Source of the DNA: a virus
Taxonomy: Duplodnaviria; Heunggongvirae; Uroviricota; Caudoviricetes
Length of the DNA stretch: 54,443 bases
IMG/VR virus record: IMGVR_UViG_2579778982_000031
Strand: one strand, 5' to 3'
The notes under the pieces were generated by a model. The model had not been told where the DNA came from. It ran no database searches and saw only the letters and a list, made by a program, of their open reading frames with translations. Positions 2,597-10,406 of the stretch are shown here, piece by piece. Both the position numbers and the translations under genes were made by a program. Within the stretch, counting starts at the first letter, position 1. Every line of letters begins with the position of its first letter.

Positions 2597-2982
2597 AGTT
2601 GATCCTTCCTTTCCCGCCCAGCGTGAACACGTACTGGCGACACCCCAACAAAGGGGCATTTGCTGGTAAGAGCCTGATAAGCGCGGCGGGGCGAAAATTT
2701 CAGAGCGCGGCGTGTGCAGCAATAGTTGAGCAGTTACGTCGTCTGCCAAAACCAACGTCGGCACCTGCTTCAGTGGAGATCGTGTTGTTTCCTCCGGATA
2801 ACCGGATCCGCGATCTGGACAACTATAACAAGGCACTGTTTGACGCCCTGACCCACGCGGGTGTGTGGGAAGACGACAGCCAGGTGAAAAGAATGCTGGT
2901 GGAGTGGGGACCGGTTATCCCGGAAGGGAAGGTCGAGATCACTATCAGTAAGTACGAGAAAACGGCGGGTGCAGCCGCCTGA
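2593..2982 (+). CDS. rusA: Holliday-junction resolvase RusA
   Basis: Classic RusA motifs: PPSVNTYW near the N-terminus and RDLDNYNKALFDAL with the catalytic Asp cluster; ~129 aa. Confidence 0.85.
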   Translation: MKLILPFPPSVNTYWRHPNKGAFAGKSLISAAGRKFQSAACAAIVEQLRRLPKPTSAPASVEIVLFPPDNRIRDLDNYNKALFDALTHAGVWEDDSQVKRMLVEWGPVIPEGKVEITISKYEKTAGAAA

Positions 2983-3001
2983 TCAAGAGGAGAAACGAAG
3001 T

Positions 3002-3799
3002 ATGAATAATCTGATGGTCATTGATGGTATTGAAGTTCGTCGTGATGCTTATGGACGTTACAGCCTGAACGATCTGCACAGGGCTGCCGGTTCTCTGGAT
3101 AAGCATAAGCCTGCATTCTGGCTCCGCAATGAGCAAACTGAACGTTTAATAAGCGAGTTGCAGATTTGCAACTCGGTCAATATAGAGCCAGTTAACGTTA
3201 TTCGTGGCGGAAATAACCAGGGGACGTATGTCTGCAAAGAACTGGTGTATGCCTATGCAATGTGGATCAGCCCGTCATTCCATCTGAAGGTGATCCGTAC
3301 TTTCGACATGGTAACCAGCACACCGGAAAAATTATCCGGACAGGCTGCTGACAAGATGCAGGCTGGTGTGATTCTGCTGGACTTTATGCGCCGGGAATTA
3401 AACCTGTCTAACTCATCAGTGCTTGGTGCCTGTCAGAAACTCCAGGAGGCTGTTGGCTTACCGAATCTGGCACCGCGCTATGCCATTGATGCTCCTGCTG
3501 ACGCGCCTGATGGCTCAAGCCGCCCCACGCTGTCACTGAGTGCACTGCTGAGGCAGTATGGTATCCGCCTGACAGCTAATCAGGCATATCACCAGATGGC
3601 GAAGCTGGGGATCGTTGAACAACGCGAACGATACAGCCGTACCGCGATTAACAACATCAAAAAATTCTGGTCGCTGACGGCGAAAGGCTGCATGTTCGGC
3701 AAGAACATTACCAGTCCTGCAAATCCGCGCGAGACGCAGCCGCATTTCTTCGAATCCCGATTCCCTGAGCTGTTAAAGCTGCTCGATACCGTTCATTGA
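3002..3799 (+). CDS. KilA-N domain protein
   Basis: N-terminal KilA-N-like segment (MVIDGIEVRRDAYGRYSLNDLHRAAG); ATG at 3002 chosen over the upstream in-frame start. Confidence 0.55.
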   Translation: MNNLMVIDGIEVRRDAYGRYSLNDLHRAAGSLDKHKPAFWLRNEQTERLISELQICNSVNIEPVNVIRGGNNQGTYVCKELVYAYAMWISPSFHLKVIRTFDMVTSTPEKLSGQAADKMQAGVILLDFMRRELNLSNSSVLGACQKLQEAVGLPNLAPRYAIDAPADAPDGSSRPTLSLSALLRQYGIRLTANQAYHQMAKLGIVEQRERYSRTAINNIKKFWSLTAKGCMFGKNITSPANPRETQPHFFESRFPELLKLLDTVH

Positions 3800-4796: not shown

Positions 4797-4813
4797 TTTT
4801 GTGGAGAAAGTTG

Positions 4814-5191
4814 ATGCGTGATATTCAAATGGTTCTGGATCGTTGGGGAGCATGGGCGGCGAGTGATAGTTCAGGAGTAGACTATTCTCCTATAGCTGCT
4901 GGGTTTAAAGGGCTTCTTCCCTATACAAGCAAAACACGTCAGGCATGTTCAGATAGTGATGCATTAATTATTGAAGGTTGTCTTGCTCGTCTAAGGCAAA
5001 AAAGGCCGGACGAACATTCGCTTCTTGTTGCCCATTACCTATACGGTATCTCTAAAAGAAAGCTCGCCAAGGCTCGTAAAAAGGATGAGAAACTAATACG
5101 CATTGAGATACAGATGGCTGAGGGGTTTATTGATGGCTGCCTATCGATGCTGGAAATTAGTCTAGAGATGGACCCCGAAATTAAAGATTGA
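4814..5191 (+). CDS. Late-gene antiterminator Q
   Basis: N-terminus MRDIQMVLDRWGAWAA typical of Q proteins; last early gene before the lysis region; GGAG RBS before the ATG at 4814. Confidence 0.6.
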   Translation: MRDIQMVLDRWGAWAASDSSGVDYSPIAAGFKGLLPYTSKTRQACSDSDALIIEGCLARLRQKRPDEHSLLVAHYLYGISKRKLAKARKKDEKLIRIEIQMAEGFIDGCLSMLEISLEMDPEIKD

Positions 5192-5197
5192 TTATTG

Positions 5198-5224
5198 AAG
5201 CCCGATTACTCGGGCTTTTGTTCC
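5198..5224 (+). terminator. Rho-independent terminator between convergent genes
   Basis: 7-bp stem AAGCCCG/CGGGCTT with loop ATTACT, followed by TTTGTT; lies between the Q stop and the stop of the reverse-strand gene. Confidence 0.5.
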
Positions 5225-6225
5225 ACATCTCGAACATAGAGAATTACTGCTGACTTAATGTCACCATCGACGTGTTTTGCGTTAATGCTCAAATGTACAG
5301 GCTTTCTTTCCCACTCAGCTCGCTGCAATGCTTCTTTGTTTCCGGATTCATCAAGGAAAACATCCTGAACTACGCAGGTTAGACGTTGGTCGGTATCTAC
5401 GCGTCGGACCTTAACTTTGAAACTCTCTGGGTCAGTATTATTGACTTCTTCAATTCGGTAAATACCATCAATCCTCATTTCTGATGAACGTCTACGAGCA
5501 TTCGTAACCAACTCTTTCGCCATTTCAGAATCAATAGTAACGCCATCAATTTGAGCGTTATCTGAACGCACAAAGGATTTGACCATTTGGGTTTTAGCGT
5601 CATACGACATACGGTCCATGTTATCGAGAAGTGGTTTTTCCGCAATCATTTCTGAAATAACCCGCAGGCGTTTAGTTTCTTGCTCGCTCATGATCTGCAT
5701 AGTCCGGAGATGTTCTTTCTCTCCATCCTTAGCAATTTCTGCAAGGCGAATATCTTTACGGTTGTCCAAGAACCGTTTAAATACTGTTACTCCGCCCCAG
5801 ATGACTGCTGCGCCGAGAACAGTAAACATGATCTCAGTTGCGTTCATTTTACCAACAAGTTCCTGTGTGAGTTTGGTTAAAAAGCCATCAATGTTGATTT
5901 CTACTATTGAAGAACCCTGTTCTACCGTAACTTCTATTTCTAGGGCATCAAGTTCTTCTTTGGTCAGTTTGCGGACGTCAGGGACACCGTACTTGGCAAG
6001 GGCATATGATTTGTTGATTTGAGCTTGCATTTCAACAAATCCCTTCATAACTGAAGGTGTTAGCGATCTGTTGAATTTTTCACCGGTTAATCTGATGGTA
6101 AGGTTTGGCCATCCGTTGAAACTTAAACTGTCAGGTAAACCATAACCATCAAGATAGCTTTCAAGCAAATCGAAGGCTTGCTGCTCAGATTCAATGTCTA
6201 CATGAATCTCATCAAACTTATCCAA
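5206..6225 (-). CDS. Hypothetical single-pass membrane protein (moron)
   Basis: 339-aa ORF opposite to all phage genes; one central hydrophobic helix (IMFTVLGAAVIWGGVTVF); charged coiled-coil-like C-terminal half; no recognisable catalytic motif. Confidence 0.5.
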   Translation of the reverse strand: MDKFDEIHVDIESEQQAFDLLESYLDGYGLPDSLSFNGWPNLTIRLTGEKFNRSLTPSVMKGFVEMQAQINKSYALAKYGVPDVRKLTKEELDALEIEVTVEQGSSIVEINIDGFLTKLTQELVGKMNATEIMFTVLGAAVIWGGVTVFKRFLDNRKDIRLAEIAKDGEKEHLRTMQIMSEQETKRLRVISEMIAEKPLLDNMDRMSYDAKTQMVKSFVRSDNAQIDGVTIDSEMAKELVTNARRRSSEMRIDGIYRIEEVNNTDPESFKVKVRRVDTDQRLTCVVQDVFLDESGNKEALQRAEWERKPVHLSINAKHVDGDIKSAVILYVRDVEQKPE

Positions 6226-6400
6226 AAATATGTCCTCATTCTAAGCCAACTGTCACCGTGAGGTTTGGCAACGCCTGCTTTATTTTTCGTTTTAAGCTGT
6301 GTGGCAAAAAAATAATGGAAAAACAGATAAAAATCACTAACGCGGTCCGCATTTTCTAGATTACTGTGTTAAGAGTGGTTACTTCGCCACACAACTTAAA

Positions 6401-6422
6401 CCCGCCGCTGAGCGGTTTTTTT
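6401..6422 (+). terminator. Putative rho-independent terminator (tR'-like) upstream of the late genes
   Basis: GC stem CCGC-TGA-GCGG followed by T7 (CCCGCCGCTGAGCGGTTTTTTT); sits between Q and the lysis genes where lambdoid phages place tR'. Confidence 0.4.
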
Positions 6423-6520
6423 GTACCTGTAAACTTGGTGCAGCACAGTAAACACGCTGGTGGTCGTGAATACTGACTTTTTATCTTGCTGGCTTTTTAG
6501 ACAAGAGTTATTGGTATGTC

Positions 6521-6748
6521 ATGTTAACCAGAAGGGAAAAAGACATGCTAAAACAGCAAGATATGACAGAAACCGCCGCCGCAGTCCTTCATTTCTTACC
6601 TGCTGACAAGTGGGTAACGCCACGCATGATGACGAGAACTACCGGAGTAAGCGAAGCCCGGTGCCAGTTAATACTGACTCAGTTAGTTCTGGCGGGTCTG
6701 GCGAAGGATAACGGCGGGTACGGGAATAAATTCAGACGCTGCCAGTAA
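6521..6748 (+). CDS. Hypothetical small protein
   Basis: 75-aa ORF between the putative tR' and the methylase; no motif recognised. Confidence 0.35.
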   Translation: MLTRREKDMLKQQDMTETAAAVLHFLPADKWVTPRMMTRTTGVSEARCQLILTQLVLAGLAKDNGGYGNKFRRCQ

Positions 6749-6898
6749 TGGCGGTTTCCTGCTGTGAAAATGGGCGGCTGGTGGGTGTTGGTAGCACCTG
6801 CCAGCCATTCGCTCATGCCTACTGGTCACAAGCGAACCACGGCCCACTGCTTTAGCGCAAAAGCAGAGTGAGCCTACCAGAGTTACGCTTACTGATCC

Positions 6899-7951
6899 AT
6901 GAAAAATACTGTAAAAATAAACAGTGTTGATTTAATCAACGCTGATTGCCTGCATTTTATTCAGTCCCTGCCTGATGATTCCATTGACCTGATTGTTACC
7001 GATCCGCCTTACTTCAAGGTGAAACCCAACGGCTGGGACAATCAGTGGAAAGGGGACGAAGATTACCTTAAGTGGCTGGACCACTGTCTGGCCCAGTTCT
7101 GGCGGGTGTTGAAACCTGCCGGAAGCCTTTACCTGTTCTGTGGGCATCGCCTGGCATCTGATATTGAGATCATGATGCGTGAACGTTTCAACGTGCTTAA
7201 CCATATCATCTGGGCGAAGCCGTCCGGACGTTGGAATGGGTGTAATAAAGAAAGTCTGCGCGCATATTTTCCTGCCACAGAGCGCGTTCTGTTTGCTGAA
7301 CATTACCAGGGGCCATATCGCGGCAAAAGTGACGGCTATGCGGCAAAAGAAAGGGAACTCAAACAGCACATAATGGCACCGCTGATATCGTATTTCAGGG
7401 ATGCTCGTGCCGAACTGGGTATAACGGCAAAACAGATTGCCGAAGCCACTGGTAAGAAAAATATGGTTTCCCACTGGTTTGGTGCCAGTCAGTGGCAGTT
7501 GCCGAATGAGGCTGACTACCGGAAGTTGCAGGCACTGTTTTCCCGTATAGCGGCAGAGAAGTTTCAGGAACAACAACTGGAACAACCACACCACCAGCTG
7601 GTGGCATCTTATGATTCACTGAATCGCAAATATTATGAATTGCTGGATGAGTTTAAAACTCTCCGGCGCTATTTCTCCGTATCAGTTTCCGTGCCTTATA
7701 CCGACGTCTGGACGCATAAACCCGTTCAGTTCTACCCGGGTAAACATCCGTGTGAGAAGCCTGCGGATATGCTCCGGCAAATAATCAGTGCCAGTAGTCG
7801 ACAAGGCGATCTGGTTGCTGATTTCTTTATGGGATCCGGTTCCACAATAAAAGCGGCAATGGCGCTGGGGCGTCGGGCGTTAGGTGTTGAACTTGAGTCA
7901 GAGCGGTTTAATCAGACGGTGAAAGAGGTAAGTGAACTGGTGGGGAAATAA
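6899..7951 (+). CDS. DNA methyltransferase (N4/N6 type)
   Basis: Motif IV DLIVTDPPY near the N-terminus and motif I FFMGSGST near the C-terminus (beta-class order); sits between Q and the lysis genes. Confidence 0.75.
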   Translation: MKNTVKINSVDLINADCLHFIQSLPDDSIDLIVTDPPYFKVKPNGWDNQWKGDEDYLKWLDHCLAQFWRVLKPAGSLYLFCGHRLASDIEIMMRERFNVLNHIIWAKPSGRWNGCNKESLRAYFPATERVLFAEHYQGPYRGKSDGYAAKERELKQHIMAPLISYFRDARAELGITAKQIAEATGKKNMVSHWFGASQWQLPNEADYRKLQALFSRIAAEKFQEQQLEQPHHQLVASYDSLNRKYYELLDEFKTLRRYFSVSVSVPYTDVWTHKPVQFYPGKHPCEKPADMLRQIISASSRQGDLVADFFMGSGSTIKAAMALGRRALGVELESERFNQTVKEVSELVGK

Positions 7952-9382: not shown

Positions 9383-10009
9383 TCAGTTGTCAAATGAATA
9401 TACGTTAAAGGTATATGTCGACATAATTTCACCAAGTACCTCAATACATACACTTTTTTTATGAAAATTACTGGGAAATGAACTTAGCTCCTCAAGACAT
9501 TGCACATAAGTGCTGATATCACTTGCATCACGTTCAAGGAATTTCACTTGACCAAAAGAAGGAGTTTTAATCTTGGTTCTTTGCTGGAGTATATGGATAA
9601 AGTGTGTAGTTGGTGAAACTATTACTCTTGAAATATCGGAAATGATGTCTTCTTGAACTTGCCGATAAAGTAAATCCTTTGGGTAATGGTGTTTAATCTC
9701 GATGGTTGCAACATTGCCATTATGTTCAGACGTTAATATCGACTGGTTATAAAGTGATATGTCAACAGCGCCGATACCGAGTTTTGGATGCTCACTTAAA
9801 GCAGTTAGTGTGCTGATTTGATTGAGTATAACAACTAACTCATCACGTATTTGTGTTTCATGTTTGCGATTGTAGAAGTAGCCATTCAGTTCATTTAACT
9901 TTTTATGCATCCTATCGTGACTAATTGCTTCGATCAGTAAATCCTGAATCATACTTTTCTCTAGGTAATCCGAACGGTTGTAAGTGACAGTATTGTGCTG
10001 GCATGTCAT
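9383..10009 (-). CDS. Hypothetical protein (moron, gene 2 of a reverse-strand pair)
   Basis: 208-aa ORF in an AT-rich block between Rz1 and the packaging genes; no motif recognised. Confidence 0.45.
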   Translation of the reverse strand: MTCQHNTVTYNRSDYLEKSMIQDLLIEAISHDRMHKKLNELNGYFYNRKHETQIRDELVVILNQISTLTALSEHPKLGIGAVDISLYNQSILTSEHNGNVATIEIKHHYPKDLLYRQVQEDIISDISRVIVSPTTHFIHILQQRTKIKTPSFGQVKFLERDASDISTYVQCLEELSSFPSNFHKKSVCIEVLGEIMSTYTFNVYSFDN

Positions 10010-10052: not shown

Positions 10053-10406
10053 TCATCGATAGAAAAACTTTACAGCCCACTCGTAAACAGCTTTGTAAAT
10101 CGGTTCATGGTAAATACTATCGATACTATTCAGATGTGCGATCATCGCCTCCACAGTTGTAGTGGTTGTTTCTAATATTTCGATTATTGCAGGGCGGTCA
10201 TCATCTTCATCGAAGTATTCGAACAGCAGTACAGGTTTACCATGCAATTCAGCATCTGAGACTCTAAGGTTACAACTACCGCTCAACTCAAAGTGAATTT
10301 TGTAATTACCTTCTACAGAATGGCCTACGGGGAAAAAGTATAGGGTGTCATCTTTGTTCAAAAGCCATTCCCATTCATAACTATTCATTTGTGAACTCCT
10401 GTTCAT
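10053..10406 (-). CDS. Hypothetical small acidic protein (moron, gene 1 of the pair)
   Basis: 117-aa ORF 43 bp upstream of the 208-aa gene on the same strand; acidic DEDDD patch. Confidence 0.45.
   Translation of the reverse strand: MNRSSQMNSYEWEWLLNKDDTLYFFPVGHSVEGNYKIHFELSGSCNLRVSDAELHGKPVLLFEYFDEDDDRPAIIEILETTTTTVEAMIAHLNSIDSIYHEPIYKAVYEWAVKFFYR

Follow-up and report, generated by a model that had tools for sequence, protein, structure and literature searches.

Several described systems bear on the gene reported here. RexB of phage lambda is a four-helix membrane protein. Lactococcal AbiP, P22 SieA and HK97 gp15 are single abortive-infection or exclusion proteins, borne by prophages or plasmids and anchored in the membrane; AbiP joins its anchor to a nucleic-acid-binding domain, and the anchors of all three proteins are either N-terminal or multi-pass. 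Lambda also produces the paQ antisense RNA, which damps late-gene activation. BstA is a single abortive-infection protein of ~300 aa that is widespread in Gram-negative prophages and typically encoded downstream of the repressor, and in BTP1 bstA shares the repressor promoter and has documented expression in the lysogen (PMC8585504). In addition, the phi80 gene taiEcA is a reverse-oriented defence gene that lies near Q-controlled genes and is expressed in the lysogen (PMC11364771).

Our window, the whole stretch of 54,443 nucleotides that was analysed, comes from a Caudoviricetes virus (IMG/VR record IMGVR_UViG_2579778982_000031) and carries a gene on the reverse strand between the antiterminator gene Q and the leader of the late operon. 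We refer to it as the cargo gene. The features of the region are as follows.

4799–5191, plus strand: antiterminator Q gene of the Q21 superfamily, convergent with the cargo gene (PF06530, E = 2.1e-52; RefSeq 'antiterminator Q family protein').
~5197–5218, plus strand: GC-rich hairpin overlapping the cargo stop codon (RNA fold −14.7 kcal/mol, z = −4.1).
5206–6225, minus strand: cargo gene of the PHROG 6191 family, WP_000357056.1 (open reading frame, full-length profile match and RefSeq).
5227–5484, minus strand: predicted C-terminal OB-fold domain, residues 248–333 (AlphaFold model).
5779–5832, minus strand: hydrophobic helix, residues 132–149 (Kyte-Doolittle 1.2–2.3; predicted helix 129–144 with pLDDT ~90).
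5845–6204, minus strand: N-terminal alpha/beta domain, residues 8–127, the most conserved part (motif LTGEKF..SLTPSVMKGF.E.Q, GSS).
6233–6237, minus strand (reads 6237–6233): ribosome-binding site GAGGA, 7 nt 5′ of the cargo TTG.
6279–6307, minus strand: best candidate sigma-70 promoter of the cargo gene, TTGCCA-17-AATAAA, marginal (PWM scan).
6335–6400, plus strand: Q-linked conserved block, the presumed pR′/Q-binding/pause region, with the palindrome GCGGTCCGC (6342–6350) and TGTTAAGAGTGGTTACTTCGCCAC (sequence comparison).
6402–6423, plus strand: tR′-like intrinsic terminator before the late genes, with a short GC stem and T7 (terminator scan).
6521–7951, plus strand: a 75-aa ORF (phrog_331) and a DNA methyltransferase gene, which come first after the terminator and precede the holin (ORF, Pfam, PHROG and RefSeq).

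The first-pass annotation had placed a reverse-strand gene of 339 aa between Q and the late-operon leader, and this was confirmed at 5206–6225, with the same coordinates in RefSeq, where the identical gene of E. coli PCN061 (WP_000357056.1) is labelled 'hypothetical protein'. The open reading frame starts with TTG and ends with a stop codon at 5206–5208. A full-length match to PHROG 6191 (E = 1.6e-152, residues 3–337 against positions 2–337 of the 338-position profile), homologues down to 26% identity and a TTG start that is kept in the Enterobacter, Entomohabitans and Serratia copies together identify it as a real coding gene. TTG and GTG starts are unusually frequent in the family, being used by about half of the sampled members (loci L003, L008, L014, L017, L028, L030, L032, L035 and L036), and TTG is conserved in the Enterobacterales copies of the Q slot; this usage is consistent with selection that keeps expression low. 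The region upstream of the gene is AT-rich, stands back-to-back with the presumed pR′ and is partly conserved across genera. PWM and consensus promoter scans of this sequence found no convincing promoter belonging to the cargo gene, the best candidate (PWM 9.43) ranking only near the 95th percentile when compared with the top scores of random 240-nt windows from the analysed sequence, and an Rfam scan gave only a sub-threshold STnc130 match.

Q normally stands directly before the late promoter and terminator in lambdoid phages, as the earlier annotation had assumed, and in SfV and phi80 these elements indeed lie within ~100 nt of it. In the curated phi80 annotation pR′ starts 43 nt after Q with no cargo between them, a layout that agrees with the Q cassette (Q, pR′, pause element, terminator, late genes) described in bioRxiv 10.1101/651190. 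In SfV the terminator lies ~100 nt past Q, and this slot also holds no cargo. The elements of the canonical Q cassette all seem to be present in the window (Q, the Q-linked conserved block and the terminator), but they do not follow Q directly: the Q stop codon lies at 5189–5191, the block starts at ~6335 and the tR′-like terminator, previously located at ~6400, was found at 6402–6423, a site whose homologue carries a terminator in the SfV annotation. The distance from Q to its presumed target, ~40–100 nt in phi80 and SfV, is ~1.15 kb in the window (5192–6335) and includes the 1,020-nt reverse-strand gene. The cargo gene is convergent with Q, as had been proposed, and the two stop codons are 14 nt apart. 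The Q protein itself is distantly related to the structurally solved Q21 (phmmer against 6p18 and 6jnx, E = 7e-4).

Comparison with related phages indicates what this space can hold. In cdtI, Q is 95% identical, the ~65-nt block before the terminator is the same as in the window and the shared sequence runs from ~6335 (…CGCGGTCCGCA…TGTTAAGAGTGGTTACTTCGCCACACAACTTAAACCCGCC…) through the terminator, while the slot contains two different reverse-strand genes, encoding a 147-aa protein and a 313-aa DUF6731 protein (orf53 and orf54; L001 2001–3389). In PhiR40_1, Q is related, the block is present in its proximal part and the slot contains a third reverse-strand cargo of 148 aa (L025 1765–2211); none of the cdtI and PhiR40_1 slot cargoes had a PADLOC match. 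Ayreon and SfV have a backbone in common with the window (DUF968 gene, 75-aa ORF, methylase and holin), but they encode a different Q of 250 aa and diverge from the window up to the terminator itself. Because related phages have either nothing or other reverse-strand genes at this position, the space between Q and the block is a cargo hotspot in SfV/cdtI-like prophages.

The cargo gene itself occurs in 87 of 5,426 complete E. coli genomes (1.6%) and on more than 1,000 Enterobacteriaceae contigs, and 913 E. coli records match parts of a 1,301-nt query made up of the gene and both flanks. The order Q, cargo, pR′ was also found in Enterobacter, Entomohabitans, Rahnella and Serratia, at 73–86% protein identity. 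Since the arrangement is conserved in five genera, it reads as an old module and not as a recent insertion. The first-pass annotation had called the gene an inserted moron, and what stands of this is the extra gene in a variable slot, as seen against cdtI, PhiR40_1, SfV and phi80, whereas the implied recent insertion does not. As is typical of morons, the gene is present in some phages and absent from close relatives at the same site. A base composition distinct from the neighbours, another mark of morons, is not seen here: the GC content of the cargo gene (0.40–0.44) equals that of Q and the pR′ region (0.39–0.45), and the early genes (0.53–0.57) exceed the entire Q module in GC. As a separate observation, two more reverse-strand ORFs lie directly after the lysis genes (9383–10009, minus strand, 208 aa; 10053–10406, minus strand, 117 aa). 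Neither had a Pfam or PADLOC match, the same position in the 98%-similar PCN061 prophage holds iss/bor, and it is a second cargo slot of the window prophage.

The Q-linked block at 6335–6400 is the presumed pR′/Q-loading region, a role suggested by its co-variation with the type of Q: it is common to cdtI, partly shared by PhiR40_1, which has the same Q type, conserved in Enterobacter, Rahnella and Serratia, and absent from Ayreon, which has another Q type. Consensus and PWM scans for the −35 and −10 elements of pR′ were weak and fixed no elements. TAGATT was considered as a candidate −10 and rejected, as it is not conserved in other genera. The palindrome GCGGTCCGC (6342–6350), which lies inside TAACGCGGTCCGCA, is near-invariant in five of the six aligned Q-slot loci from five genera and also occurs in cdtI; Serratia has a variant form. 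This palindrome could belong to the Q-binding or promoter region, or could fold, on the minus strand, into a weak hairpin with a U-rich run after it. Downstream of the terminator, the 75-aa ORF at 6521–6748 gives weak winged-helix-like matches and 6899–7951 encodes an orphan N6/N4 DNA methyltransferase. Both precede the holin and are presumably under Q control.

The AlphaFold model of the cargo protein, built from a 41-sequence alignment, has a pLDDT of 83 and a pTM of 0.74. It comprises the N-terminal alpha/beta domain, for which a structure search returned no match, a helical region (129–218), a beta-hairpin (223–232), and a C-terminal domain modelled as a five-stranded barrel whose third and fourth strands are separated by a helix, as in an OB fold. 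Residues G48, T56, Q67, G104, S105 and Y256 are invariant. The predicted OB fold is more variable than the N-terminal domain, which suggests a conserved effector to which a variable module for binding or sensing is attached. Residues 132–149 are the sole hydrophobic segment. Its uncharged run is 18 residues long in this protein and only 15 in one third of family members, and the Hessa insertion sum is ~0 to +3 kcal/mol for this protein and 0 to +6 across the family. The flanking charges weakly favour a cytoplasmic C-side and so disagree with the N-in orientation that would be expected for a protein lacking a signal peptide; the cargo protein has neither a signal peptide nor a lipobox. The earlier description of a single-TM protein is borne out in that there is one hydrophobic stretch, but the short uncharged run (15–18 residues) and weak Hessa sums make the transmembrane call marginal, so that a single-TM membrane protein is possible and not established. 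The segment might anchor the protein in the membrane, or it might be a helix buried in the core. The N-terminal domain modelled alone has lower confidence than in the full model, and this, together with the high pTM, hints at a compact protein with the helix possibly buried rather than at two domains separated by a membrane.

Database searches place the cargo protein in what is, by its sequence relatives, a large unannotated single-gene prophage family. Among 1.84 billion cluster representatives there are 952 relatives at E ≤ 0.001 (clusters at 50% identity), 195 of them at E ≤ 1e-30, and nearly all are 320–350 aa long (~335) and align end to end. A profile search of 5.8 billion proteins returned 133 relatives, which carry only 'hypothetical protein' labels, no Pfam domain and no fusion, and a genome scan with a single peptide pattern gave only 12 loci. 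Hosts include Enterobacterales, Pseudomonas, Acinetobacter, Moraxella, Halomonas/Vreelandella, Methylobacter, Burkholderiales and Treponema, with Klebsiella and Salmonella prophages also represented. The family thus ranges over environmental and host-associated bacteria from Proteobacteria to Spirochaetes, and this broad distribution speaks against a virulence role tied to particular hosts. For the cargo protein, no model of Pfam, NCBIfam or PADLOC scored above threshold, no PADLOC-DB 2.0 family reached E ≤ 1 for it or E ≤ 0.01 for two distant relatives, and a profile search of PDB sequences gave chance-level matches only. Homology to a structural or lysis function, which the first-pass annotation had said would refute its reading, was not found in these searches, the only match being PHROG 6191, of unknown function. 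We regard as noise a Pfam match to FNIII-A_GpJ, which reached 18.6 bits (E = 0.002) where the cut-off is 27, and which overlaps with the OB fold. In the literature, no paper mentions the protein under its RefSeq accession, and the papers on E. coli phage phi458, which encodes a relative as Orf11, do not discuss it.

The genomic contexts of the relatives give the strongest evidence on function. In about half of roughly two dozen sampled contexts, the family gene immediately follows the prophage repressor and is co-directional with it, at a distance of 26–150 nt; gaps as short as 26–43 nt suggest co-transcription with the repressor. This arrangement was found in Salmonella P0052 (on 345 contigs), in Morganella, in two Pseudomonas and two Treponema loci, in phi458, whose Orf11 follows the annotated CI on the same strand, in phage Mcat17 of Moraxella, with an upstream gene confirmed to encode an S24 peptidase, and in Bermanella, where the repressor is a probable one. 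The gene in Acinetobacter and on a metagenome contig stands one or two genes downstream of the repressor within the same strand block. The intervening genes there encode an HSDR_N-domain protein and/or a conserved ORF of ~100–115 aa (L013 4308–7023; L045 1941–4466; L022 3550–5029), which are possible partner genes in some lineages. Elsewhere, P. aeruginosa copies lie between tail genes I and J, co-directional with the tail genes, a Vreelandella copy lies between Mu-like morphogenesis genes, another copy is beside the integrase at a prophage end and a further one is in a toxin-antitoxin island. One P. aeruginosa locus also has, between K and I, a gene for superinfection immunity (Imm_superinfect) together with an Arc/antirepressor block (L007 4565–5152), and this tail region is likewise a cargo hotspot. 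Given that the same single gene occupies several classical cargo slots of unrelated prophages, it behaves, in its genomic placement, as an accessory gene whose dominant slot typically holds exclusion genes.

Our analysis points to a lysogen-expressed anti-phage protein of a new family, acting in superinfection exclusion or abortive infection, as the most likely role, with about an even chance that this is correct. The first-pass annotation had noted that reverse-orientation morons are usually expressed from the prophage and often mediate exclusion or abortive infection; for this gene such a reading is reasonable, and the places in which its homologues lie strengthen it. The gene would be a prophage accessory gene, or moron, in the hotspot between Q and the promoter that Q acts on. 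From its orientation and from the relatives behind repressors we infer expression in the lysogen: the gene is oriented away from the lytic operons, early and late alike, and it would therefore be transcribed independently, including in the lysogen, from the AT-rich region back-to-back with pR′. The conserved N-terminal domain would act on a conserved cellular or nucleic-acid target, the central hydrophobic helix would attach the protein to the inner membrane or insert into it, either constitutively or on a trigger, and the variable C-terminal OB fold would bind phage nucleic acid or protein. Against the anti-phage reading, the protein has no similarity to any known defence family, as judged by PADLOC and by hhalign against RexA, RexB and TaiEcA, and the orientation of the P. 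aeruginosa copies along the tail genes would also allow late lytic expression. The lack of a convincing promoter in the scans, the marginal hydrophobic helix with its unfavourable flanking charges and the high pTM count against the proposed model as well.

An unlikely alternative role is that of a lysogenic-conversion factor with a host benefit other than defence, such as envelope modification, stress tolerance or serum resistance, comparable to bor/iss and lom. Reverse-strand morons of lambdoid late regions do include bor/iss, the closely related PCN061 prophage has iss after its lysis genes, a possible membrane helix would suit such a protein and the AB5-B and CusF types of OB fold act as binders in the periplasm or after secretion. 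However, the protein has no signal peptide or lipobox, the family is also found in marine, soil and spirochaete prophages and so is not tied to animal hosts, and its dominant slot, the one after the repressor, is where exclusion genes typically lie.

The 3′ end of the cargo gene bears on a further alternative, in which the gene regulates the phage's own cycle. The first-pass annotation had Q and the cargo gene sharing a terminator hairpin. A hairpin at ~5197–5218 does hold the cargo stop codon, but a U-tract (UUUUGUU) follows it on the plus strand only, which is Q's strand; on the minus strand the hairpin is followed by CAAUAAUC. Because the U-tract is confined to the plus strand, the hairpin is probably the terminator of the Q/early transcript and is no clear bidirectional terminator; the terminator scan listed it on neither strand. 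With a 3′ hairpin lacking a U-tract on its own strand (5186–5230, minus), the cargo transcript may run antisense into Q (4799–5191), resembling paQ control in lambda. The regulatory alternative holds either that the protein modulates induction or the maintenance of lysogeny, or that a transcript antisense to Q damps late-gene activation. It draws on the linkage of the gene to the repressor in many relatives and to Q in five genera, on the CAAUAAUC sequence in place of U residues after the minus-strand hairpin, and on the position of the cargo upstream region back-to-back with the presumed pR′. We consider it improbable, since the same protein is found in at least four unrelated genomic positions, which would not be expected of a module-specific regulator, closely related phages lack the gene, and an antisense effect needs no conserved protein of 339 aa.

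Least probable is a structural, assembly or replication-related function in the lytic cycle, for which one could cite the P. aeruginosa copies on the same strand between tail genes I and J, the Vreelandella copy among Mu-like morphogenesis genes, the sub-threshold FNIII-A match to tail protein J and the DNA binding of OB folds of the SSB, PriB and RecO type, but which is at odds with a gene that runs opposite to every flanking lytic gene in the window and in four other genera, sits in the immunity region in most relatives, is missing from related phages and has a relative in only 3 of 50,697 phage genome records, and with a J-domain match that falls below threshold and overlaps the OB fold.

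Returning to the anti-phage reading, it is conceivable, although somewhat short of an even chance, that the cargo protein is the founding example of a new, widespread family of single-protein anti-phage systems, comprising ~950 clusters at 50% identity from Proteobacteria to Spirochaetes, listed in no defence catalogue and preferring the rex slot. Its architecture would then be undescribed, combining an unmatched N-terminal fold, a sensor of the OB-fold type and a hydrophobic helix that activation might drive into the membrane. Should the family prove anti-phage, a common single-gene system has been missed by current defence finders; if the phenotype is negative, what remains is a hypothetical prophage gene of the ordinary sort. 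In addition, Q and pR′ bracket a new cargo site, with at least three alternative reverse-strand cargoes. The family is new and its kind is known, namely prophage cargo in a hotspot.

The described systems that the cargo gene most resembles share its setting rather than its sequence. The rexAB slot of lambda, downstream of the repressor and on the same strand, is the slot of many relatives of the cargo gene, and the likeness to RexA/RexB would extend to lysogenic expression and an anti-phage role, both presumed here, and to a possible logic of sensor plus membrane element. However, Rex, an abortive-infection exclusion system of the cI operon, consists of two proteins encoded after cI, whereas the cargo is a single protein encoded after Q in the window, the four helices of RexB compare with one marginal hydrophobic helix, and hhalign of the cargo family against RexA and against RexB gave a probability of 0.1% each. 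BstA and the cargo family, likened by description, are both single proteins of Gram-negative prophages in the slot after the repressor. Pfam did not detect KilA-N in the cargo protein, although the same search found it in a neighbouring gene (2969–3799); this carries little weight, since the BstA domain had initially been found by HHpred alone. TaiEcA shares the reverse orientation among rightward, Q-dependent genes of a lambdoid prophage, but it is a protein of 204 aa encoded inside the late operon after the lysis genes, whereas the cargo gene lies upstream of pR′ and outside the late operon, and hhalign against TaiEcA (phi80 orf63) gave a probability of 0.2%. PADLOC and Pfam gave no homology between the cargo protein and AbiP, SieA or gp15. 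Given the negative hhalign comparisons with RexA, RexB and TaiEcA and the lack of KilA-N and PADLOC matches, the cargo protein appears to stand outside the RexAB, BstA and TaiEcA families, and it may work like them.
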